Shown one piece after another: positions 3,281 through 59,673 of a DNA stretch of 64,000 bases. Positions within the stretch are counted from its first letter, which is position 1; every line of letters starts with the position of its first letter. The stretch spans positions 211,513 through 275,512 of the IMG/VR virus record IMGVR_UViG_3300031555_004728; one strand, 5' to 3'. Under the pieces are notes generated by a model. That model was given only the letters and a program-made list of their open reading frames with translations, ran no database searches and had not been told where the DNA came from. The DNA is from a virus (Duplodnaviria > Caudoviricetes). The position numbers and the translations under genes were made by a program.

Positions 3281-3375
3281 AATAGCTACCTTCCTTTCTT
3301 TTATAATATTAATAAACTGTTTTTAAGTCCATTTTTTAGACATTATTTTAAATTATTATTAGGAGGAAATTTAAG

Positions 3376-3621
3376 ATGTTTTCTGTTGAGAAATTAAATG
3401 AAATTAAATCTGAACTTGCAACTGTTTTAGAATCTGCTGAAAAAGAAGAAAAAGATCCGGTTGCTGAATTAGAGCAAAAAATAGAAGATATTAAGAAAAA
3501 AGAAACTAGAGGTTTTATTTCAAAAGAAGAAGCTGAAGAAGGAATTTCAGATCTTCAAAAGAAATTAAAAGAAATCAAAAAAGAACTTTCTGAAAAGAAA
3601 GAAGATAAAAAAGAAGATTAA
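3376..3621 (+). CDS. Small charged coiled-coil hypothetical protein
   Basis: AGGAGG RBS, E/K-rich ORF, terminator downstream. Confidence 0.75.
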   Translation: MFSVEKLNEIKSELATVLESAEKEEKDPVAELEQKIEDIKKKETRGFISKEEAEEGISDLQKKLKEIKKELSEKKEDKKED

Positions 3622-6213: not shown

Positions 6214-8097
6214 TTATACTCCTAAGTCTTTACATGCTTTCTTATATAATTTATCCAACGATGGTAAATTAAACCATTTTCTACCAGTACATAACCAGTT
6301 TTTAGTTTGGAAATTATCAAAAGCTTCTTTAGCAACATCATCATGAAAATCTGATGTTTCTTTTGGTAATAATCTGACATTAGTTATAGTATGAACTTTT
6401 CTTGGACCACCAAGTACATTAAATTGACCTGCATCAAGAATACACTTAAAGTGTAATGTACTAGGGTCAATATTCATGGCGAATATTGTACTTGGATAGA
6501 AACTACTCATATCCATATCTATAGCATATTGGAATATATTATTTGACTTTTTACTTCCATATAAAGCCATACCAGTTGGAAGATTTAATCTAGGATCACC
6601 TACAAGTGCACCCTCGAATCCAACTTTTTTCTTATCATCATCATCATCCTCATCTGGTTCTTCATCACTACCAAATGGTGTTAGGTTTATATTTTCACCA
6701 GGAACCATTCCACGTGTTAAGAAATCCAAATATTGATAATTCCTAAGTTTTACAGTTTGTTTAAATTCTGAATCGTATGGTGTTATATTTTGATATGCCG
6801 TAGCATAATAGTTTTCTAAATCTTTAGTTTTATCTTCAATACCTTTTTGAAGTAAAACGTCTTTGATGTTGTATATAAAATATTTCTTATAATTCTTATA
6901 AGAGAAATATTTAATACTTCCTTCTTCACCATAATCTAATTTAGAATCACCCACTACTTTTTTACCTATATAATTAAGTGAGAATGAACGTATTTCTGAT
7001 TGACCTTTTCTAATAGCCGCATACGTTCTCATCTGACATGTATAATTAGTATATGATGTATTAAAAAAGTAGTCTGTTTTTGATTTAATATCAAAATGAA
7101 AATTATCTTTTTTAAACCAGCATTCTTTAACTGGAAAATCTGGATGACAGAATAAATCCTTAGGATCTAATCCTAACTTCTGAGCACGCTTATAAATATA
7201 ATTAACGTCAAATTCGAAGTTCCAGAAAGTTACAAAATCAAATTTCCTTTTATTAATTAATTCAAAAAGATGAACTAACATCTTTTTTTCATCTTTATAG
7301 AAAAAGAATTTATAATCTAAGACTCCATATACATCATCAAACATCTCATGAAGTTCTTTCTTTATATCTTCTTGATGCTCGATAAAATCTATTTCCTGTT
7401 CAAGTCTACTTTTATGGAGTTCTCTTCTATATAATTCTTTATCTCTTTCACTTTGTGTCATATATGTTAAATCACGTTCAACATATTCACGTCCAACCAA
7501 AGCAAATGTGTAACACTTGGATTCATCGTTATCCACAAGTGTTACTAAATCAATAGGACATGTATCTGGATTAGCCAATCCTTCAACATCCAAAAAATCC
7601 GTCTCTATATCGGCAAATGCCTTTGATATAGGTTTAGGTCTTGAATTGTCATACATCATCATCCATTTATATCTATATAGTGCTCTTACATCATAATCAG
7701 CACCATATACAAATGGATACATTAAAAAATTCTTAAGTTCTGAGTATCTATGAGTTTTATAGATATCAGAGGCTTGTCTTTTTAAACCATCACCACCATC
7801 TTCAATTATGGCTGGTATAATATCTTTAAATGGTACACTTTTCTTTTCACACTTATCAAGATATTGATAGTTCAAACTGTATGGAACTCCATAAGGATCT
7901 AAATGTGTTGTCCTGTATTCTGGTTTTTCAAAGTATATGTCCACTGGTGGATTTGGTATTGTTGTAACGTGTTTTTCTTCTGTATCCAAATCTTTCCAAA
8001 CGATATATAAAATATCTGGAGTTCCTTCTTTTTTGTTTTCTTTTACGTATTGGATATCTACAAGCATTGCAGAATCCTTTGGTATAATTTTACCCAT
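6214..8097 (-). CDS. Family B DNA polymerase, N-terminal (exonuclease plus motif A) subunit of a split enzyme
   Basis: ExoI ADIETD, ExoII FWNFEFDVNY, ExoIII YNIKDV, GFEGALV and motif A DMDMSSFYPS; motifs B and C are absent. Confidence 0.85.
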   Translation of the reverse strand: MGKIIPKDSAMLVDIQYVKENKKEGTPDILYIVWKDLDTEEKHVTTIPNPPVDIYFEKPEYRTTHLDPYGVPYSLNYQYLDKCEKKSVPFKDIIPAIIEDGGDGLKRQASDIYKTHRYSELKNFLMYPFVYGADYDVRALYRYKWMMMYDNSRPKPISKAFADIETDFLDVEGLANPDTCPIDLVTLVDNDESKCYTFALVGREYVERDLTYMTQSERDKELYRRELHKSRLEQEIDFIEHQEDIKKELHEMFDDVYGVLDYKFFFYKDEKKMLVHLFELINKRKFDFVTFWNFEFDVNYIYKRAQKLGLDPKDLFCHPDFPVKECWFKKDNFHFDIKSKTDYFFNTSYTNYTCQMRTYAAIRKGQSEIRSFSLNYIGKKVVGDSKLDYGEEGSIKYFSYKNYKKYFIYNIKDVLLQKGIEDKTKDLENYYATAYQNITPYDSEFKQTVKLRNYQYLDFLTRGMVPGENINLTPFGSDEEPDEDDDDDKKKVGFEGALVGDPRLNLPTGMALYGSKKSNNIFQYAIDMDMSSFYPSTIFAMNIDPSTLHFKCILDAGQFNVLGGPRKVHTITNVRLLPKETSDFHDDVAKEAFDNFQTKNWLCTGRKWFNLPSLDKLYKKACKDLGV

Positions 8098-24497: not shown

Positions 24498-25904
24498 GTG
24501 AATACATTGAAAGTAGGATTATTAAATACTGAAGAATTTATTTCAGTAAATAATCTTAAGGAAATAACATCACCTGTTATGTTCCAAAGAGGAAATAACC
24601 CTCATCCAGAAGGTCTCTTTAGTACTGAAATTTTTGGTATGACACCAAAAGATAGAAAAGAGACTTTTGCATATATTAATTTAAATCATGTATTCCTACA
24701 TCCTCATATTTATAAGATAATGAAACGATTTTTTAGAAACGTTGAAAAAATAGTTAATGGTTCTTCTTATTATCAAATTAATAGTGAAGGACATCTTGTT
24801 TTATCTGATAATATTAATGGGGAAACAGGAGTTCAATTTTTATATGATAACTGGGAAAAGATTAAATGGGAATATTCTGATTCACCGTCAAGAAACGAAA
24901 GAATTGATGTTGTGACAAAAAGTAAGAAATCAGAAGTTTTCATTTCAAAACTTATAATCATTCCACCATTTTATCGAGATGTAACATCATCATCAGGTGG
25001 AGGACAAATACCAGAGATTAATAACTTTTATGCAAATGCTATTCGTTTATCTTCTATATTAAAAGAAAACGATTTATTTAGTTTTAATCTCTATTCATCT
25101 CAATATGCTATACAAGAATTACTTGTAGAGACATATGATTATTTTAAAGAAAAACTTCAATCTAAAAATGGTTTACTTAGAAAATATCTTATGGGTAAAA
25201 ACGTTGACCTTTGTACAAGAGCTGTTATTACAGCAGCATCTTTCCATGCAAATAGACCTGAAGATATGCAGATTAATCTTAAATATAGTGGTGTTCCTAT
25301 ATCACATATTTTATCTCTATGTAATCCATTTATTATGACATGGATTAAAAATTTCTTTGAACGTGAATTAATGGATCCAAGTGAAAAGCATTTAATTGAT
25401 TCTAGAACTGGGAAGGTTGTTGAATTAGTTGAACTTGCTAATCCTGAACTTATTTTTACTGATAAAGAAATTACAAAGAAAATGAATTCATTTATTAAAG
25501 ATCCAGATATGAGATTCAAGCCAATTGAAGTTCCTCTTAAAAATGGAAAAACTTCATATCTTTTATTTCATGGTAAAAGATATGATATGAGAAATAAAGA
25601 TGAAATTGCATCAATTGCTAATAGAAAGATGACATGGACAGATGTATTTTATATGGCATGTGAAGATGCAGTTAAAGATAAACATGCAATTATTACTAGA
25701 TATCCTTTGATTGACCAGTATGGTCTTTTTGTTACTAGAGTAACTACATTGAGTACATCAAAAACTGTACCTATGCAAGTTGGTGAAACTTTATATCCAT
25801 ATTATCCAGATATTGATTTATCTGTACCAGATAGTAAAGTTCCTACTTTATTTATAGATTCAGTTATGTTCTCTAATAGTTATCTTCCTGGTATAGATGG
25901 TGAT
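24498..25904 (+). CDS. rpoC: Phage multisubunit RNA polymerase beta' subunit, exon 1
   Basis: GLFSTEIFG, LRKYLMGKNVD..RAVI, ITRYP; ends ...GIDGD at the first half of the catalytic DxDGD; AACA-N6-TA at 24465-24476. Confidence 0.9.
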
Positions 25905-26187
25905 TAACAAAATAGTTACCTAACCTCTTTAATTGCTGGAAACTCCTTAGAGTCTAAACTACCAAAGTGTAACAATGTTTAGAATTGGACAATCAGCAGC
26001 GAAGCTTCTTATTATAAGAAGAACGTTCAACGACTATCGAAAGCATAACATAAGAGAAAGACTTATGTGAAGAAGTGAGTAGAGTAGGATTTATAATCCG
26101 AAATGGGAGGCAATATTAATTTGGTAGTAGAATTAATATTGAAGATATAGTCTGAACTTTATAGAAATATAGAGATTAACATAGTTG
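25905..26187 (+). ncRNA. Group I intron (283 nt, no ORF) in the beta' catalytic motif
   Basis: P1 GGTGAT/GTTACC with U-G pair at the 5' splice site; P AATTGCTGGAAACTCC, Q AATCAGCAG, R GTTCAACGACTA, S AAGATATAGTC; terminal G; splicing restores DGDYDGDQ. Confidence 0.95.
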
Positions 26188-27564
26188 TATGACGGTGATC
26201 AAACTACAGTAAAAATTGTATGGACGCAAGAAGCCAATAAGGAATGTGAAGAAGTTATGAATAGACCATCATTCTTTGTAAGAATGGATGGTTCATTAGT
26301 AAGGTTTGTTGAAATAGAAGCTATTCAGACATTCTATAATATGTCTAAAGAACCTTCTAGATCTAATAAAACTTTATCTATTCCAGAAGTTCATAATTTA
26401 ACAAAATTAACACCAAATGATATCACATTCGATTTACTTATTGATTTATTTGGTCATATTGGTGGTAAAAAACCTAAATATGAACCAGAAGATAAAATGA
26501 TTATTCCAGTTGGAGAGTATTATAATAAAGAACCTATTGAAACTACAGTAGGAAGATTTATCTTTAATAAAGCTCTTATTGAAAAATCTGGTATGGTTAA
26601 AGTACTTGGATATATCAACGATGTTTTAACTGAAGGATATTTCCATAATAAATTAGAAGGTAAAATTGCTGTTGAATTAATTGAAGGTAGAATTACAACA
26701 GACCAAATGTATACTTATGTTGATACTAGAGACTGGTTATCACTTCAATTACATGCATTAATAACACCTTCATTCACACCAAATACTATAAAGATTCATC
26801 CTGAAGTTCAAAAACTTAAGAATGAATTATTTAAGAAATATGAAAAAGAATTAGCAAGTGGTAATGCTATTATAGCATCACAAATAGAATCTGAATTGAT
26901 TAATAAAACCAAAGAAGTATTAAAAGATGATATTGGAATGGATTTATATGTTTCTGGAGCTCGTGGTAGTTTAGGAAATAACTATAAAAATATTGCACTT
27001 ATGAGAGGTGCGGTTTATAATCGTGCTACTGGAAAATTTGAAGTTGTTAAGAATTCATTAAATGATGGTCTTGCAGTAGAAGATATTCCTATTTCATCAA
27101 ATACAATTCTTGAAGGAGCCTATCCTAAAGCTTGTGGTACGAGAGATTCAGGATATATATCTAAAAAATTACTTGCTGAATGTCAGACTGAGTTTTTAGG
27201 AGATAAAGATTCAGATTGTCATACTAAACGTGGAATTAAAATAAAATTAGAACCTGGTATGGCTAAAAACTATATTTATAGATATATCATGGTTAATGGT
27301 AAACCAGTTAAATTAACTGCAGATAATATCGATAAGTATATAGGAAAAGAAGTAGAACTTAGAAGTCCAATGACATGTATTAGAACTGAAAAAGGTGAGA
27401 TTTGTAATGTATGTGCTGGAGATTTCTATTATATGGTAGATAATAGAGCTATGGGATTATCAGCATCTCGTATTGGAAATGCTCTTACAAAATATAATAT
27501 GAAAAAATTCCATGATAACGTTATTAAATACACTGATGTTGATTTGGATGATTTATTAATGTAA
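26188..27564 (+). CDS. rpoC: Phage RNA polymerase beta' subunit, exon 2
   Basis: YDGDQ, ETTVGRFIFN, SGARGS, TRDSGYISKKL (bridge helix), DC.T, LRSPMTC..ICNVCAG (Zn site), IGNALTKYNMKKFH (trigger loop). Confidence 0.9.
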   Translation, partial: YDGDQTTVKIVWTQEANKECEEVMNRPSFFVRMDGSLVRFVEIEAIQTFYNMSKEPSRSNKTLSIPEVHNLTKLTPNDITFDLLIDLFGHIGGKKPKYEPEDKMIIPVGEYYNKEPIETTVGRFIFNKALIEKSGMVKVLGYINDVLTEGYFHNKLEGKIAVELIEGRITTDQMYTYVDTRDWLSLQLHALITPSFTPNTIKIHPEVQKLKNELFKKYEKELASGNAIIASQIESELINKTKEVLKDDIGMDLYVSGARGSLGNNYKNIALMRGAVYNRATGKFEVVKNSLNDGLAVEDIPISSNTILEGAYPKACGTRDSGYISKKLLAECQTEFLGDKDSDCHTKRGIKIKLEPGMAKNYIYRYIMVNGKPVKLTADNIDKYIGKEVELRSPMTCIRTEKGEICNVCAGDFYYMVDNRAMGLSASRIGNALTKYNMKKFHDNVIKYTDVDLDDLLM

Positions 27565-50776: not shown

Positions 50777-51934
50777 ATGTTAAACGTGGGAGTTATTGGC
50801 GTAGGTAATGCCGGTAATCAAGTATGCGCACTTTGCGCAAGTAAGTATCCGGAAATTCCGGTAATAGCTATCAACTGTAGTGAGAATGATATGAAAACAC
50901 TTCCTAATAGTGTACTTAAATTTCTCATCGGTGATGGTAGAGGAGCAGGTAAAAACAGAGAAGAGGCAAAAACTTTTCTTGAGAAATCTATCATGCAATT
51001 AATTGCTGATGAAAATGTAAAGAAAGTTCTCTCTGAATTAGACCTTGTATTTATAGTAAGTAGTACAGGTGGTGGAACAGGTTCAGGTATTTCAATCTTA
51101 CTTACAAACATCATCAATGCTGCATCTCAACAGTATGAAAAACCTGTATTTCCTATTTCAGTAGGTATTTTACCTACACTCAGCGAAGCTTTATCAACTC
51201 AAGCAAACTCATTAAGTTATCTTACAGAGTTATATGAGATTTGCGAATCACCAACATATATGCTCTATGATAATGAAAAGTTTTCTAAAAAGTCAACTGT
51301 AGAAATTCTTAAAGGGGTTAATGAAAGAATCGTAGAAGACATCAATGTGTTAAGATGTTACTATAACAGATCAACAACATACAATTCAATTGATGAGCGT
51401 GATGCTATGACATTAATTACAACACCGGGACGTATTGTAGTTGGTTCATTGATTGATGTTAAAGAAAAAGATTGTGATGATGATGAAACTCTTGAAGATA
51501 AACTCATTACAGACCTTAAGAAAAATGCTCATGTAGAAATGCAAATGGATAGAATCGTTAACAGAACAGGTGTCATTGTTAATTTAAGTGATGCTATGTT
51601 ATCACGTTTCGATACTCATATTCCAAAAATTCAAAATCTTATCGGTTCACCGATAGAAGAGTTTGAACATATTTCTATCAATGATGATAGAAAGCTTCCA
51701 AACAATGTGTTTTACATCGCTACAGGTCTTACACCTATCATGGATAGAATTGCAAAAACAAAAGACCGTATTGATGAAATTACAGAAGCACAAAAGAGAA
51801 AAGAAGACGAACTTGACCTTGATAAAGGTATGCTTGATGATATTCAGGCAAAAAGAGTTTATAGACCTAAGAATGATGATATTCCTGAAAAGATTGACCT
51901 TGGTGCAATCTTTGATAAATTCAAAGGTAAATAA
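50777..51934 (+). CDS. Tubulin/FtsZ-family GTPase (PhuZ/TubZ-like)
   Basis: GVIGVGNAGNQ, GAGKNRE, signature GGGTGSG, YDNEK, SIDERD. Confidence 0.9.
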   Translation: MLNVGVIGVGNAGNQVCALCASKYPEIPVIAINCSENDMKTLPNSVLKFLIGDGRGAGKNREEAKTFLEKSIMQLIADENVKKVLSELDLVFIVSSTGGGTGSGISILLTNIINAASQQYEKPVFPISVGILPTLSEALSTQANSLSYLTELYEICESPTYMLYDNEKFSKKSTVEILKGVNERIVEDINVLRCYYNRSTTYNSIDERDAMTLITTPGRIVVGSLIDVKEKDCDDDETLEDKLITDLKKNAHVEMQMDRIVNRTGVIVNLSDAMLSRFDTHIPKIQNLIGSPIEEFEHISINDDRKLPNNVFYIATGLTPIMDRIAKTKDRIDEITEAQKRKEDELDLDKGMLDDIQAKRVYRPKNDDIPEKIDLGAIFDKFKGK

Positions 51935-53035: not shown

Positions 53036-54064
53036 ATGAATGTTAGTATTATAACAGTAGGTGGAAAACATACACCATGGGAAATAATCAAAGATACCGT
53101 AACAATTGGAAAAAAAGAGTTATCACAATTCTTTCTTCAATCACAAGATCCAAAAGTGTTACAGAAAATAAAATTAGGGGAGGCTTTCAATTCAAAGGAA
53201 GATAATGAATTTAAAGAATTATCTCCAAAGAAAGTTGTAGACGAGTCTAATACATTAGACATCGTGATTCAAAATTTCAACCTAGATTTCAACAAGATTT
53301 ATATTAATACAAAAAATATGAATCCGTATGTAGTTAAAGAACCAAAGAGAAAATGCGATGAACGTCTAGTTATATTAATGCTAGACAATTCATACGCTTA
53401 CATACGCTCAACTATTAATTCAACAATTGGAGAAGCGATATGTACATTCCATACAGAAAAATCAATTGCTGTATGTATCAAAGTTACAGAATCAGAATTC
53501 CAAAAATATTTAACTGGTTCAGAGTTTGTAAAACTCATAACTTTTGATGTTCTGAATAAAGGTTCATTCTATAACTTTAGTGTAAATTTACACAAAGAAG
53601 GTGTTTCGGTTAAGAAATCAAAACATCGTAAAAAAGCTACATGTAATCATTTATCAGAGTTGAATGAGCAGTATAAGTCAAAGAAAGTTGGAAGAAGATT
53701 TGTACGTTTTAGTGATAAACTTATTACAACTGCATATATTTCTTCAATAGACTTCCATGACACAACAGAAAATCTTATCAATAAATATCCTTTAAGTGAT
53801 GTGATTTTAGAGGATTCTCCAATATTCCTATATGATGTGAATATTGATGATAAAGGTTTCATTGTAAGGGATGAAATATTCGAAAATGTAATTGATGATA
53901 TGAAAAAGAAGAAAATCAAATCATTTACTTTGTCTGGTTGTAAACTCAGAAAAGAGACATTTGAAGATATCAAGCCTTTATATATTTTCAGTTTTCAGGA
54001 AACAGAAAAATTAAGTGAAGAAGAAATCGAAATTCAAACTTTGAAATGTGTTAAAAGTAATTAA
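53036..54064 (+). CDS. Hypothetical protein
   Basis: 342-aa ORF with GAGGGG RBS. Confidence 0.75.
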   Translation: MNVSIITVGGKHTPWEIIKDTVTIGKKELSQFFLQSQDPKVLQKIKLGEAFNSKEDNEFKELSPKKVVDESNTLDIVIQNFNLDFNKIYINTKNMNPYVVKEPKRKCDERLVILMLDNSYAYIRSTINSTIGEAICTFHTEKSIAVCIKVTESEFQKYLTGSEFVKLITFDVLNKGSFYNFSVNLHKEGVSVKKSKHRKKATCNHLSELNEQYKSKKVGRRFVRFSDKLITTAYISSIDFHDTTENLINKYPLSDVILEDSPIFLYDVNIDDKGFIVRDEIFENVIDDMKKKKIKSFTLSGCKLRKETFEDIKPLYIFSFQETEKLSEEEIEIQTLKCVKSN

Positions 54065-54124
54065 TTCGGTTTTGGATTCAAAAGATATATTATTATTGTG
54101 AATAATTGAAAGGAGATCATAATC

Positions 54125-54616
54125 ATGGCAAAGAAGAAACCAGATTATAAGCTTGATGGAAACATCATTGCTACAATTAAAGAACATACAAACAAGCACG
54201 GAAAAATCAAGGGTAAAAACAAGAAACAAACTCGTACACTTGTAGGTGCTTGTCCTCACCATACTTTGAATAAGAATGGTAAAATTAAACCTATTTTATC
54301 AAACGATGGAAAACAAACATGTACTTGTCGTGCGTGTGGAGCATCTTTCAAAGGTCATCCATATTCAGGAGAAGATGTAAAACGTATGACAAAAGGAACC
54401 AAAGAATTGGTTAATCAACTTAAATATCTTTCAGTTGCAGTAAATGCCGGAAATGAGACTGTAAGATTTGCATGTGAATTAGGTTCAATGCTTGAACATC
54501 TTCCATCAGTTTACAAGAACGTAAAACAGATTGCAGAGAAAGCAGAAGCTGTTAAGAACAAAAAGAAGAAAAAGAAAAGCAATTCAAACTTCAGTAACGT
54601 AGGTGGATGGAGATAA
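54125..54616 (+). CDS. Basic Zn-finger-like protein
   Basis: CPHH...CTCRAC; Lys-rich termini; TATATTAT at 54086-54093. Confidence 0.7.
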   Translation: MAKKKPDYKLDGNIIATIKEHTNKHGKIKGKNKKQTRTLVGACPHHTLNKNGKIKPILSNDGKQTCTCRACGASFKGHPYSGEDVKRMTKGTKELVNQLKYLSVAVNAGNETVRFACELGSMLEHLPSVYKNVKQIAEKAEAVKNKKKKKKSNSNFSNVGGWR

Positions 54617-54629
54617 AAATAAAACATTA

Positions 54630-55395
54630 GTGTTTAGTACCTTGATACAAACCTGAGAATTGGTTTATGGGTTTAGGAAATGAACTAAACCCACTTCTTC
54701 ATATATCTATAAACTAAAGTTTTGAATATAGGATAATGTCGTGTCACAGCGACATTATTCATTTACCTATATAGACGAATACAAATAAAATAATATCAAC
54801 GTTATGGAGGAATCGCGTTGTTAAATAATATATTCCCCCACCAAAACATTTAAAATTTAAATATCCGTATAACTGAGGATTATATAGGACATTATTAAAT
54901 GTATATTACATATCGAGCCAAAAGATTGCCAGTTAAGCAATAACTTATCGATAGGGTAAAATTAATTTATCGTAGTGAATCGTGCTCATACCACGAAGTT
55001 AAGTTGGAGACTTAATTGATAAATTAACGCATTAAATGTTAGATGTCAGGATGTTAAGATGTAAAATGTAACATGTTAATACGCTATAAATAGGAGATGT
55101 TTATAGCACCTTAGATGTGATTATTTAAATTTTATGATGTTACAATGTTTTCAAAATCCTTCAATATAGGTTTTGGTTATATTAGCCTATTTGTTCCTGA
55201 AGGCTGTCTATATGGGAATATTATAAAAATTTAAAGAGTAAAACATTCTAGTATCTAGTTCGATAAACGTTGTCATGAAATTATCACATTCCTTTTATCA
55301 TTAGATTATTTTATACACGTTTCGAAATGATACACAAGCAACCAAAATAACTTATTAAAATAAGATAAAGCTATTTAGCTTTATCTTATTTTTTG
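54630..55395 (+). ncRNA. Candidate large structured ncRNA (about 750 nt)
   Basis: No ORF of 60 aa or more; many stems with plus-strand G-U pairs; long-range ATATTCCC/GGGAATAT; terminator ATAAGATAAAGCTA/TAGCTTTATCTTAT plus T-run. Confidence 0.6.
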
Positions 55396-55424
55396 TTTTA
55401 TTTTTTTAATGATATATTATTTTA

Positions 55425-55680
55425 TTGAATCAAATATGAATTATTTCCTCAAGGGTTTTTAACGTTTGTACCTGTATTTTGTAATTTATATTCGATTCAA
55501 AAATACCAATATCACTTATTCAACTCCTTTCTGTTTTCAAATTTAGAGTTGATACTACGTTAAGTGATATTTTCTTTTATCTTTTCAGTTACAAAATGTT
55601 TGAACTGAAAATCAATCATTAGTACTTCGATACATTTGTATCAAAAAAGAAAAGGTGTCGCTATCACCTTTTCTTTTTTA
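55425..55680 (+). ncRNA. Candidate early small RNA with three hairpins
   Basis: TATATTAT at 55413-55420; stems TGAATC..ATATGAATTA/TAATTTATAT..GATTCA, AATATCACTTA/TAAGTGATATT, TTTTCAGTT/AACTGAAAA; terminator AAAAGAAAAGGTG/CACCTTTTCTTTT. Confidence 0.45.
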
Positions 55681-55682
55681 CA

Positions 55683-55805
55683 TTATTTCCATTCATTATA
55701 ATAATCTTTATAATCAGATTCTGATGCAAATAACATATATTCACCATCAATATATCCCATACATCCACTATCAATATTATAACATTTATATTCCATGATT
55801 TTCAT
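55683..55805 (-). CDS. Small protein (40 aa) with G.MG..DG.YMLFASE.DY motif
   Basis: Hand translation MKIMEYKCYNIDSGCMGYIDGEYMLFASESDYKDYYNEWK*; AAGGAG RBS. Confidence 0.7.
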   Translation of the reverse strand: MKIMEYKCYNIDSGCMGYIDGEYMLFASESDYKDYYNEWK

Positions 55806-55986
55806 CTCCTTTAGCATATTATAATATTGTGAAAATATTAAAAATAAATAATGTTATTCGAGTATCCCCTCGAATAAGATGTTAAATGATTAATAACACG
55901 TAATTAACACTCATTTTTTGTAATTTTTTATTACAATGATTTATTATTATTATGAGTAAAAATAAAAGAAAGGGAGATATAAGGAA

Positions 55987-56314
55987 ATGGCACAAGATTC
56001 TAAAATGATGTACATTGAAGATGATATCGAAAAGATTCAGATGAAAACAAATTTGTACCTAAAATCCTATGGTCCTGAGGGTGCTTTTCATTTGACAAAA
56101 GAAATCATTCAAAATAGTACAGATGAGTGTAAAAATCCTAAATCTGAGGGTAGTTACATCAAAGTAGTTATTGATAAATTAGAAGATTCAATAACTGTAG
56201 AAGATGATGGACGTGGTATCAGTGAAGTTGACTACCCATTAGATATATGCTGTACAAAAATTCAAGCAGGTTCTAAATTTATGAGGGATGATGGTGAATT
56301 ATCAGCTGGTGAGT
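55987..56314 (+). CDS. gyrB: DNA gyrase/type IIA topoisomerase subunit B, exon 1
   Basis: EIIQNSTDE, VEDDGRGI, TKIQAGSKF; ends SAGE + T. Confidence 0.9.
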
Positions 56315-57526
56315 TAATATCCTAGCTCACAAAGTATAGTAATATACTTTTAGGAAACCTCTTTAATTGCTGGGAACTCTTGTTAGGTCTTAGATACCAA
56401 AGTGTAACAATTCTAAGAATAGAGACAATCAGCAGCGAAGCTAAATTATTAAAAATACTATGAAAAAACATGGTAAAAACTCTTTAAAAAGTTATCTAGA
56501 TAATTATATTGTAAATGATAACTTTGAAGAGAGAATTATATTTATAAATGGCGAAGAAACCCATTATAGAATTAGAAGTAATGGTGAAATAATTTCAACG
56601 GAATATCAAGGTAAAAAACGAAAAATACCTCATATTATGATTGGTGGAATTGATAAAGATGGATATAGATTAGTTACGTTAACTCATAATAAAGTTAAAC
56701 GTACATATCGAATTCATAGATTGGTTGCAGAATATTTTATTCCAAATCCATTTAATAAACCAGAAGTTAATCATAAAGATGGCAATAAACTAAATAATGA
56801 TATTTCAAATTTAGAATGGGCGTATCAATGGGAAAATTCTGAACATGCAGTAGTTACTGGTTTAAAATCAGGAGTTAATTCTTCAGAATATATACATTTA
56901 GTTTGTCAATTATTAGAAAGTAATCTTTATAGTATGAAAGAAATTTCTAATATAACTGGTATAGAATATGAATTGGTTGTAAAAATACATTCTGGTTATT
57001 GCTATAAACATATAGCAGATCAATATAAAATAAGCAATTATAACCAATCCGATCATATTGATAAACGAGAATACGAACTTATTGACGATGATACTATTAA
57101 AAATATTTGTATTGAATTAGTTAATGGGTATTTAAATATATCAGAATTATCTAAAAAATACAATGTTTCAAAAACTACAATAAAACGTATTCTCAATCAT
57201 GAAACAAGAAAAGATATAACTTTGAATTATTCATTTAATGATTATAATACTAAAGGCATAAATCAGTTTATTAAAAATATAAAAGGATGTGATATTATAA
57301 ATGAAAATTTATAAAATTGATTCTTCGCTAAAAATATATAATAAAAAATAAAATAATTTAGAACGTTCAACGACTATCGAAAGCATAACTTAAGAGAAAT
57401 ACTTAAGTGAAGAAGCGAGTAGAGTACACTTATTATATAAGTGGAAATGGGAGGCATCTTATATTTGGTAATAGAATATGAGATGAAGATATAGTCTAAT
57501 CTTTATAGAGATATAAAGTATTAATG
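56315..57526 (+). mobile_element. Group I intron (1212 nt) with HNH homing endonuclease in gyrB
   Basis: P1 GTGAGT/GCTCAC with U-G pair; P/Q/R/S elements nearly identical to the beta' intron; terminal G at 57526; splicing gives SAGEFGIGITCCNALS. Confidence 0.95.
56460..57314 (+). CDS. Intron-encoded HNH homing endonuclease with C-terminal HTH-like repeats
   Basis: Y.I.SNG.I, DKDGY..V.L, HRLVAEYFIPNP.NKPEVNHKDGNKLNN.ISNLEW. Confidence 0.92.
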   Translation: MKKHGKNSLKSYLDNYIVNDNFEERIIFINGEETHYRIRSNGEIISTEYQGKKRKIPHIMIGGIDKDGYRLVTLTHNKVKRTYRIHRLVAEYFIPNPFNKPEVNHKDGNKLNNDISNLEWAYQWENSEHAVVTGLKSGVNSSEYIHLVCQLLESNLYSMKEISNITGIEYELVVKIHSGYCYKHIADQYKISNYNQSDHIDKREYELIDDDTIKNICIELVNGYLNISELSKKYNVSKTTIKRILNHETRKDITLNYSFNDYNTKGINQFIKNIKGCDIINENL

Positions 57527-59673
57527 TCGGAATTGGTATCACTTGCTGTAATGCTCTTTCAGATGAGTTTACTATGACATCTTATAGAGAACGAGAAAAG
57601 ACAGCACATACTATTTCATTTAGAAATGGTAAGAAAGTTTTAGATGAAACTATTACAATTGGAAAGAAAGACAAACAACATGGAATGATTACAAAAATGA
57701 TTCCAAGTAGAAAATATTTAGGTCCTAATACACATCTTCCATGTGATACAATTGAAGATTGGTTAGGAAAAATCTCATATTTCTTTACGAATAATATGAG
57801 ATTGGAATTTATTGTTATGGAAGGTTTCAAATTAATAAAGAAAGTTGTATTTGAGAAAAGAGATCCAGTTGGATTACTTCTTGATATCTGCAGTTCTAAT
57901 ATTATTTTGAAACCAATTTCATTTGAAAGAACTGATGAATTTGAAGAAGAAGTTATTAATACTGACAGGTCATCAGACAAAGAAACTGTAATTAAGAAAC
58001 GTACAGCAACATATGGTATTATGTTTGCATATGATGATTCTATTGATCCAGAATATGATTCATATTGTAATTTCACGAATACTATTTCTGGTGGTGTTCA
58101 TATGGATTCTGCAGAAAAAGCTTTCTGTACATATGTACAAAAGGCTGTTAAGGATTCTATGACAGAAAATGAAAAATCTAAGATTGATGTTTTATGGAAC
58201 GATATTAGAACTGGACTTAAAATGGTAGTACATTTAACAACAAATGCTAATGTTCAGTTTGAAGGAAATGTTAAAGAAAAGATTAAAGCAGAAATCTTAA
58301 GACCTATTCTTTATAATGGATTCATGGAAGAAATTACAAATTATTTTGAAAAGAATCCAGAGAAATTAAGAGCTGTAATTAAAATTGTAAAGACAAATGC
58401 TAAAGCACGTGTTGAAGCAACTAAAGCAAGAATTGCTACAACAAAAGAAACTATGACACCTATGAAAGAACAACAAATTCCAAACTATGATAGGTGTTTG
58501 AATACTGGTAAAAATGATTATAGAGAAATTTATATAGTTGAAGGTGATTCAGCTAAAGGTTCAGGTTCTAAATATAGAAACCCATTCTTCCAAGCATTCT
58601 TTGCAGTTAGAGGTATGACTGCAAATCCATATAAGAAGACACTAGTTCAACTTATGGATCCAAATAATGGAAATAAAGAATGGAGAACTTTTGTAAATAT
58701 CATTAGATGTGGCATTGGTAAGAATTTTGATATCAATAAATTATATTTTGATAAAATTATTATTCTTACAGATGCAGATATTGATGGTCATGGTATTTCA
58801 TCATCTATGGCATCATTCTTTATTTCAGCATTACCAGAACTTGTATTAGCAGGAAAACTTTATAAGGCTTTACCACCATTATATAAAATTAATGATGGTA
58901 AAAAATCTATCTTTGTACACAACAAAGAAGAATATGTAGCTCTTTACAGGGATAAAGTTATCAAAAATTATGATGTTGTAATTTTAGCGTTAGGTGATAA
59001 GAAAATCTCTAATGATGTATTTAGAGAATTCTTATTAGATACAGTGAATTATTTAAGTTTACTAACATCGATTGCTAAGCATTATAAAACAAATTCACTA
59101 TTGATTGAGCGAGTTATATCTTATTTAGTTTACAAATATCCAGCAATTGATGGTGATTTTGATGTTGCTAATTTATTAAAAGACCAGACAAAGTTATCTG
59201 ATTTTATGTCTGTAGTTCAGGAAAAGTTTCCTGAGATTAAATATTATGAAGATACAAATGTACTTAAAGGAATTGCAGATGGTCACTTTACAAGCTTTAG
59301 TTTAGGGCATCGATTCATGAACAAAGTTGCTGAACTTATGGATATTTATAGAAAGTATGGGTATTCATTACTTGTAAAAGAAAAAGACGGAGAATACCAA
59401 CAAATGTCTTTAGCACAATTCAGTACAAAATATCAGAAGTATATTCCTGTTATACAAAGTCGTTATAAAGGACTTGGTGAAATGAGTCCACAAGATTTAT
59501 ATGAAACGACTCTTGATCCTAATGGAAGAGTATTACTTCAACTTACAATTGATGATCTTAAGAAAGACCTTAAAGTATTTGATAAACTTCATGGTACAAG
59601 TAAGAAGGATAAAATTGCAAGAAAGAAAATGATGCAGGAATTCAGAATTAATGCAGATGATTTAGATAACTAG
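57527..59673 (+). CDS. gyrB: DNA gyrase subunit B, exon 2
   Basis: GIGITCCNALS, T..GG.H, IVEGDSAKG, TDADIDG, PPLY, RYKGLGEM. Confidence 0.92.

Follow-up and report, generated by a model that had tools for sequence, protein, structure and literature searches.

What is encoded between the Zn-ribbon gene and the topoisomerase gene of an uncultivated jumbo phage of the animal gut? The window analysed here is the last 64 kb of a 275,512-base IMG/VR record (IMGVR_UViG_3300031555_004728; 28.5% G+C). In this window a structured element sits between two + strand genes, directly after the stop codon of a gene for a basic, 163-amino-acid Zn-ribbon protein (54125-54616, +) and upstream of gyrB, a type II topoisomerase gene (start 55987, +). 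The original prediction had read this place as a long stretch free of open reading frames (ORFs) that held a large structured RNA, and indeed no ORF of at least 30 amino acids with a start codon occurs on either strand within 54628-55654. We conclude that the element is a large structured RNA, undescribed so far, of a small clade of animal-gut jumbo phages, similar in kind to ROOL and GOLLD but a member of neither. It is very probable that a conserved structured RNA lies here. For the whole statement, a new class of large structured RNA that also serves as a protein platform, we would give a probability of about 0.5.

A conserved RNA in one phage clade

Two other carriers, both in IMG/VR, were found by scans with the Zn-ribbon protein and with DNA motifs: L003 (also L152), a 249.6-kb record with a Zn-ribbon protein 52% identical to that of the window, and L151 (also L160), a 278.8-kb record with one 67% identical. 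In both, 12-13 nt separate the Zn-ribbon stop codon from the first conserved motif; beyond the element come terminators on the + strand and, after them, gyrB. All three copies share the invariant blocks CCUGAGA, AAAUGAAC, CUAUAUAGACGAA, CAGUUAA, UUCCU and GCUGU(C/U)UAUAUGG, with the sequence between them rewritten. That the same gene stands upstream, with a protein only 52-67% identical, and that invariant blocks are kept between diverged stems supports a conserved structured RNA.

The conserved core is about 560-590 nt long (54649-55216 in the window) and is followed by a variable tail and an intrinsic terminator. It is closed by P1, a long-range helix of 11-14 bp across the three phages, which spans about 430 nt and pairs a 5' arm (54766-54776, then an invariant GACGAA) with the 3' arm GUCUAUAUGGG (55206-55216) at the end of the core. 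P1 is mostly invariant, its changes amounting to two compensatory pairs and one half change (G-C to G.U). Two hairpins lie upstream of P1: H0 (54649-54666), small, with a conserved CC-UGAGA loop and one compensatory pair, and H1 (54668-54693), of 9 bp, with the conserved loop (G/A)AAAUGAA between the arms GGGTTTAG and CTAAACCC (54669-54676/54685-54692). Using the counting tool on an ungapped MAFFT alignment, seven of the nine H1 pairs were compensatory and 25 of 27 cells paired, a result reached by none of 500 shuffles, and pairing fell to 30-52% when the arms were slid.

Inside P1 stands an H-type pseudoknot (54797-54839). Four of five pairs are compensatory in its stem A (54797-54801/54816-54820) and six of eight in its stem B (54806-54813/54832-54839), the sequence of which is wholly different in L151; MAFFT misaligns the pseudoknot, and these counts therefore come from the hand-alignment script and not from the counting tool. 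Farther on, a hairpin at 54925-54941 presents the invariant 7-nt loop CAGUUAA on a stem of 5-6 bp (five of six stem pairs compensatory), and the P-last domain (55158-55203) consists of the helix CCTTCA/TGAAGG (55158-55163/55198-55203; four of six pairs compensatory) and an inner hairpin, with an invariant UUCCU before the 3' arm. The long-range pair first proposed for this region, 54830-54837 with 55214-55221, is complementary in the window but is not a pairing kept in the relatives; what they keep instead is P1, and 54832-54839 with 54806-54813 as stem B of the pseudoknot.

Nine helices, the pseudoknot and P1 among them, were aligned by hand on the invariant blocks in the window, L003 and L151, and counted by script. 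The 62 pairs comprise 30 two-sided compensatory, 7 one-sided and 25 invariant pairs, one pair having a single mismatch (166 of 167 cells paired). Once the 3' arms are displaced by 1-3 nt, pairing falls from 168/169 to 66-74/169. RNAalifold, given the unedited MAFFT alignment of the three cores, returned 98 pairs, 43 of them compensatory, at an energy of -47.2, against -11.7 +/- 3.3 and at most 32 compensatory pairs in 40 column shuffles (observed z -10.7), and it recovered P1, the P-last helix, stem B and other helices. The adjacent Zn-ribbon coding sequence (CDS), treated identically as a control, gave 88 pairs, 20 compensatory, and z -3.1. Homologue covariation had been suggested as a check on the structured-RNA claim, and compensatory changes are now seen in nine helices across three phages.

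Thermodynamic folding of single sequences is less telling. The fold of 54617-55400 has z -6.5 on the + strand and -4.0 on the - strand (20 shuffles each); for the core the values are -5.2 and -4.1, and the L003 core has z -5.5. Twelve coding controls of 586 nt from this window range from -0.8 to -5.15 with a mean of -2.9 (dinucleotide shuffles, 15 each). Folding z-scores by themselves overcall structure in this genome, and as coding controls reach similar values, folding energy alone does not single out the region. It is set apart from coding sequence because of its conservation and covariation in two other phages.

Could the element nonetheless be a spacer rich in hairpins, or the remnant of a mobile insertion, with no function and alike in three phages only through recent common descent? 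It is confined to one clade (3 carriers vs 9 non-carriers), coding regions of this genome also fold well below their shuffles, and peripheral parts of the element vary greatly, strains included. However, the flanking protein is only 52-67% identical, yet blocks of 10-13 nt are invariant and all but one of the 167 tabulated cells pair, and the difference in consensus-fold z between the element and the CDS control is unlike drift. We find such an origin barely credible. A conserved small ORF was also considered and rejected, since the top peptide similarities all come from one set of DNA blocks, translated in three frames and on either strand.

The distribution of the element is narrow. It is single-copy in its genomes: model R1 matches H1 once per carrier genome, with one copy in the genome of the window and one in the L003 record, and finds no copy in the L007 record, itself 39% complete. 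Thirteen relatives of the Zn-ribbon protein were found. In nine more distant Zn-ribbon loci (31-37% identity) the next gene follows after just 120-270 nt or a small ORF, and R1 matches none of them. Four of these loci are metagenome contigs, and the others are five distinct viral records, of which L157 and L158 resemble each other. The element is thus specific to one clade (3/3 inside, 0/9 outside). The original prediction had suggested that the RNA might be partnered with the Zn-finger protein; the presence of the Zn-ribbon gene in nine loci lacking the RNA means that the protein does not depend on the RNA. Closer Zn-ribbon relatives (P0002-P0009, 59-69% identical) occur as proteins in other collections (Logan/ENA).

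Broader searches added no carriers. Among 50,697 deposited phage records there was no match to the element (blastn), to the Zn-ribbon protein or to the tubulin encoded farther upstream (both tblastn), and a metagenome scan with the Zn-ribbon alignment yielded four distant loci that all lack it. Scans of viral contigs for DNA patterns revealed no copies beyond L003 and L151, the individual patterns returning three stretches (one true, two coding by chance), one (true), three (two true, one coding by chance) and two (the known carriers). The loosest pattern returned more than 120 stretches, and R1 matched 0 of the 100 loci searched among 120. The scan of genome contigs gave nine stretches, none with the P1 3' motif; L014 and L020 were read and are coding. 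BLAST of the element against the relatives' records proved too insensitive for this purpose, with the true L003 copy reaching only E 0.13.

Strand, transcription and strain variants

Both G.U pairs and terminators point to the + strand as the one on which the element is read. Twelve G.U cells of the helix table become mismatches on the other strand (157/169 paired), and the + strand folds lower in absolute energy in both phages tested. The terminator foreseen in the original prediction is present at 55357-55406, with a 17-bp stem (55357-55392) and a T run. The terminator scan of 54000-56200 recorded 4 terminator-like sites vs 0.6 +/- 0.8 in shuffles, and one to two terminators separate the element from gyrB in all three phages. 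At its other end the element starts 12-36 nt past the Zn-ribbon stop codon, leaving no promoter-sized gap. Sigma-70-like promoters show no enrichment (15 vs 15.8 in shuffles).

The stretch or part of it is present in 20 public runs from 16 studies, whose records name animal feces or gut (cattle, mouse and others). One of them, X20, is a gut metatranscriptome, and its contigs include two pieces 95-99% alike to the stretch. The first, of 278 nt and word depth 2.7, extends from the Zn-ribbon gene past its stop codon into a 5' leader that has diverged but retains CCTGAGA. The second, of 303 nt and depth 9.44, holds a stretch bearing CAGTTAA and then 54955-55215, ending at the last base but one of P1. 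The loose ends of these contigs thus carry both CCTGAGA, invariant in the window, L003 and L151, and the CAGUUAA loop. X20 covers 10 of the 30 bins of the stretch, and nothing is drawn from the uncovered parts. The contigs agree with co-transcription of gene and element and perhaps with a stable processed core. Alongside the three carriers, the nine covarying helices, the consensus energy and the + strand G.U pairs, they support the earlier proposal of a large structured non-coding RNA.

The same observations raise the idea of a cis-acting structured 3' untranslated region (UTR), which would stabilise or process the mRNA of the Zn-ribbon/tubulin operon, or control read-through of the terminator into the topoisomerase operon. 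The short distance to the stop codon, the RNA-library contig that bridges gene and element, and the terminators before gyrB in each phage would all be expected of it. Known 3' stabilisers and antitermination RNAs are about 70-120 nt long, however, and a pseudoknotted core of 560-590 nt exceeds their needs. In relatives that lack the element the genes stand in the same order, and the 120-270 nt between them hold a plain terminator. In addition, the core contig has 3.5 times the depth of the gene's 3' end, which would fit a separately stable RNA, contig depth being a poor measure. We judge a role confined to the 3' UTR to be quite unlikely.

Strain variation was compared through the differences listed for three strain variants. 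In one (run X16), 54624-54740 is replaced by 85 other letters. In a peripheral hairpin, G.U pairs become A-U through the G>A substitutions at 54998 and 55009. Wobble pairs remain after the C>T change at 55028 and the A>G change at 55189, and the change of CA to TG at 55143-55144 yields an additional GAUGU. Of the listed substitutions 12 lie within 54640-55225, and the nine conserved helices contain none of them.

The UGUNA array

Six ATGT units every 7-8 nt, with more copies beyond, had been described in the original prediction, and they are there: TGT starts at 55037, 55044, 55052, 55060, 55067 and 55074 (spacings 7, 8, 8, 7, 7) within an array at 55035-55080, and further copies of (G)AUGU lie at 55116, 55138 and 55146 in a stretch (55112-55150) that can be aligned with L151. 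Comparison with the relatives redefines the unit. L003 has CUGUUA and UUGUUA units; what is invariant is U-G-U and an A two places on, N takes all four bases in each phage, and the flanks are free, so that the array is one of UGUNA. The L003 array (6770-6808) holds six registers at spacings of 7, 7, 8, 8 and 8, and the L151 array (3371-3407) keeps five of six registers (7, 7, 15, 7), one being degenerate. In each of the three phages 2-3 dispersed copies accompany the array. On both strands of the whole genome, which together contain 3,302 TGTNA sites (1679 + 1623), this is the sole 50-nt window with at least five of them.

Fixed register together with fixed copy number suggests stoichiometric binding to an oligomer, or cooperative binding with a site of about 7 nt, and not a loose sponge. 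As we read it, the RNA is made on the + strand as a 3' continuation of the Zn-ribbon gene transcript. The 5' leader hairpins H0, with its UGAGA loop, and H1, with its AAAUGAA loop, precede P1, which closes a core of several domains comprising the pseudoknot, the CAGUUAA hairpin, peripheral hairpins and the P-last domain. The six UGUNA units may act as a multivalent platform for an oligomeric or cooperative RNA-binding protein, of phage or host, that the RNA would sequester or scaffold during infection. This putative protein-binding role of the array is tentative, and taken by itself we would place it clearly below even odds.

Another kind of partner is conceivable. [quoted passage not shown] All four bases occur at N among the units of each phage, and the genome has no tRNA genes. 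The 7-nt CAGUUAA loop on its 5-6 bp stem is also one position off the tRNA-Asn loop. Two reports describe the UQU/UGU shared by GUN-anticodon tRNAs as being read by colicin E5 and by tRNA-guanine transglycosylase (PMC1635277, PMC10103133), and the second gives U-G-U in a 7-nt hairpin loop as the minimal transglycosylase substrate (PMC10103133). The array units are not predicted to lie in 7-nt loops, the conserved loop CAGUUAA has an A where the transglycosylase substrate needs a U, and no gene of the transglycosylase family was found in the genome. A decoy of this kind seems to us very unlikely; if true, it would mean one RNA in place of spare tRNAs.

Several observations weigh against a conserved RNA with a protein platform, and these should be considered together. 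The array is not predicted to be more open than the rest: the original prediction placed the repeats in a loop, and while the repeats are real, thermodynamic prediction gives the array a pairing probability of 0.59-0.68 vs 0.62-0.63 for the rest of the RNA, and RNAalifold pairs its last unit with a downstream AUGU. The predicted pairing partners of the array differ between phages. In L003 the array and the domain next to it stand in the opposite order to that of the window and L151. No partner protein was identified, HutP- or TRAP-like genes not having been searched for, and the Zn-ribbon protein is without a recognisable RNA-binding fold and occurs without the RNA in nine loci. As to the RNA itself, the folding z-scores of the window core and of L003 overlap the range of the coding controls, and with three full sequences formal covariation tests have low power, the helix table having been picked by eye. 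The RNA-library evidence consists of contigs from one study that do not show the strand, and DNA carry-over is possible. Finally, in one strain the run of Gs in the 3' arm of P1 is longer by one G, and there is no compensation among the strain differences listed, outside which lie another 38 substitutions and 13 indels.

Other parts of the element

The stems named in the original prediction (GGGTTTAG/CTAAACCC, ATAATGTCG/CGACATTAT, TCGTG/CACGA, GCTATAAA/TTTATAGC and CCTTCA/TGAAGG) are all in the sequence. Those beyond H1 and the P-last helix belong to more variable parts. Between H1 and P1, the pair ATAATGTCG/CGACATTAT (54733-54741/54750-54758) forms a 5'-leader hairpin (54731-54760) that folds in the window, the leader hairpins of the three phages being unrelated in sequence. 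Before the array lies a peripheral domain (54962-55027), predicted to be a 10-bp stem that encloses a CUCAUAC-loop hairpin (54980-54996) and another hairpin (54997-55017); the first of these, with arms TCGTG/CACGA at 54980-54984/54992-54996, is common to L151 and shows one compensatory and one half change. After the array, GCUAUAAA/UUUAUAGC (DNA arms GCTATAAA/TTTATAGC at 55083-55090/55100-55107) folds in the window as a hairpin (55083-55107) whose place is taken in L151 by an unrelated one, so that the homology is positional only. The tail from core to terminator (55217-55356) has no conserved blocks and measures 140 nt in the window, about 300 nt in L003 and about 40 nt in L151.

One further pairing touches the 5' end of the element. 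The end of the Zn-ribbon reading frame, its last codons plus stop (GGAGAUAA, 54608-54616), can pair with a pyrimidine-rich stretch just past H1 (about 54706-54710), which would enclose H0 and H1. The pairing amounts to 7 bp in L151 (2991-2997/3045-3051) and to 5 bp in L003 and in the window, where the register is shifted. It is beyond a covariation test because its 5' arm is fixed by the protein.

Genome setting

The Zn-ribbon protein upstream matched no Pfam or PHROG family. An AlphaFold2 model (mean predicted local distance difference test score, pLDDT, 81.8) shows a Zn ribbon and a helical hairpin; it had no Foldseek match at E<=0.001, and nothing usable came from the PDB or the protein atlas. 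Farther upstream of this gene lie two unknown genes and a gene of the tubulin/FtsZ family, PhuZ-like (50777-51934), for which the tblastn search of the 50,697 deposited phage genomes gave no match at E<=1e-5. The large ORFs of the window are mostly without a Pfam family (9 of the 10 tested). Strong Shine-Dalgarno sequences precede the genes of this phage, which would fit a Firmicutes-like host. ARAGORN detected no tRNA or transfer-messenger RNA (tmRNA) genes in the window or in the whole 275.5-kb genome.

The neighbourhood invites the thought of a replication or partition element, in which the TGTNA repeats would be iterons of an origin, or of a centromere for the tubulin, or in which a pre-primer like ColE1 RNA II would stand next to an AT-rich unwinding region. 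Precedents would be ColE1 RNA II, which is structured and about 550 nt long, and the TubZRC centromeres, which consist of arrayed iterons. The direct repeats here are near the tubulin gene and just upstream of the topoisomerase genes, and 55250-55990 drops to 23-25% G+C. The covarying stems and fixed loops, however, belong to a folded single strand and not to sites on a duplex, the twelve G.U cells fit one strand only, and a period of 7-8 bp does not hold sites on one face of a duplex. Furthermore, the minimum of the cumulative GC skew falls at 242 kb of the genome (about 30.5 kb in the window) and not at the element, and relatives with the same tubulin and Zn-ribbon genes are without it. On this evidence a role of the DNA in replication or partition appears highly improbable.

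Downstream of the element, the gene for the large subunit of the topoisomerase (gyrB) is split into 55987-56325 and 57574-59673 by about 1.25 kb holding an HNH endonuclease ORF (56460-57314), which is flanked by two halves of a group I intron below threshold (56368-56474, 23 bits; 57456-57516, 32 bits). In L003 and L151 gyrB is uninterrupted. A full group I intron (RF00028, 87 bits) occurs at 25868-26174, between ORFs of unknown family at 24498-25907 and 26185-27564 that look like two halves of one gene. Between the element and gyrB, a 44-amino-acid ORF of no family lies on the - strand (55683-55817), with a good ribosome-binding site and, at its end, a bidirectional terminator (55643-55679). 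L151 has a conserved counterpart of this ORF (47% identity over 45 amino acids, E 7e-8), and none was found in L003. The record as a whole is classed as having direct terminal repeats, yet its first and last 50 to 5000 bases differ.

Relation to known RNAs

To our knowledge, few RNAs of bacteria and phages exceed about 500 nt and also have an intricate, conserved fold; beyond rRNA, RNase P RNA and self-splicing introns, the known classes are a small set (OLE, GOLLD, ROOL, HEARO and raiA). Two of these have recently been shown to form cages made of RNA only. The element described here would add another class, carried by uncultivated jumbo phages of the animal gut, most of whose proteins have no match. 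Its strictly periodic six-fold motif array is a feature that other large RNA classes lack; it offers a direct experimental handle and may lead to an RNA-protein interaction or to counter-defence in jumbo-phage infection. Among the papers listed in our literature searches we found no large non-coding RNA of this kind from a jumbo phage, though the supplements of the ROOL/GOLLD and microbiome-RNA papers might list the motif.

Rfam was searched with the 64-kb window at gathering score, with 54400-56100 at E<=10, and with L151 and L152 at E<=1, and no family matched the element in any of the three copies. ROOL (RF03087), GOLLD (RF01998), OLE (RF01071), HEARO, tmRNA, intron and ribozyme are ruled out on this ground. 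For the group I intron (RF00028), which the model does find elsewhere in the window, nothing was seen in 54400-56100 at E<=10, and the element lies between genes; ARAGORN speaks likewise against a tRNA or tmRNA. The kinship with ROOL and GOLLD first suggested is consequently one of analogy, as the proposed search with the ROOL, GOLLD and OLE models gave no match.

GOLLD is reported to be abundant during phage growth. ROOL is described as a multi-helix, pseudoknotted RNA of about 580-660 nt that was discovered in cow rumen and belongs to phages and prophages; it forms a homo-octameric, RNA-only nanocage and is often near tRNA islands (PMC12286853). ROOL and GOLLD are given as phage or prophage RNAs of 600-800 nt, and in each nanocage chain about 40-50 nt in the interior of the cage are disordered; these linkers are described as without sequence conservation, that of GOLLD sometimes holding tRNAs (PMC12286853). 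The element resembles ROOL in its pseudoknotted core of 560-590 nt and in coming from phages of bovine and other animal gut runs. It is unlike ROOL in that no covariance model matches, the genome has no tRNA genes, and a conserved periodic array stands in place of an unconserved linker. With GOLLD it shares the character of a large, ornate, phage-associated RNA with a flexible internal stretch, the last being a feature of GOLLD; it is smaller, without tRNA association and without a model match.

These likenesses allow a reading in which the RNA would assemble without protein in the manner of ROOL and GOLLD, its conserved loops (AAAUGAA, CAGUUAA, UGAGA) making contacts between chains and UGUNA being the flexible interior linker of a homo-oligomer. 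The size of the RNA, about 600 nt, its pseudoknot, its several invariant hairpin loops and its occurrence in phages from the gut of cattle and other animals would suit this, and the array, at about 45 nt, is close to the 40-50 nt disordered in the nanocages (PMC12286853). However, no ROOL or GOLLD model matches the three copies, and no strongly self-complementary conserved loop was seen. The array keeps motif and register, whereas the ROOL and GOLLD linkers are described as unconserved, and this genome is without the tRNA genes that ROOL is often near (PMC12286853). We therefore think self-assembly of this kind unlikely.

For the protein platform that we prefer, the closest models are shorter RNAs. 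The high-affinity ligand of the T4 translational repressor RegA, selected in vitro (SELEX), is an unstructured, A/U-rich 15-mer with UGUUA and UGUAA (PMC3014915). The L003 array holds the first ten letters of that ligand contiguously, and the array of the window is of similar make-up. T4 RegA sites, by contrast, are single operators at start codons and not six-fold arrays. No gene of the RegA family was found in the genome, a search equally silent in 14 of 14 control genomes and so one that says little.

CsrB and RsmZ carry GGA motifs in the loops of many small hairpins, in varying copy number. These sponges provide a working analogy for the UGUNA array in that one RNA bears many copies of a short motif; the difference is that six units stand in one run, at a fixed period of 7-8 nt, inside a much larger conserved fold. 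Ring-shaped oligomers recognise periodic triplets of this sort: HutP binds UAG at intervals of 7 nt, and TRAP binds GAG/UAG at intervals of 5 nt. The array is like theirs in having a short motif at a fixed short period, and 7-8 nt with six registers would suit a hexamer. It is unlike them in that the motif is UGUNA, and in that the HutP and TRAP arrays are attenuator leaders of 50-60 nt, whereas this one is set within an RNA of some 600 nt.

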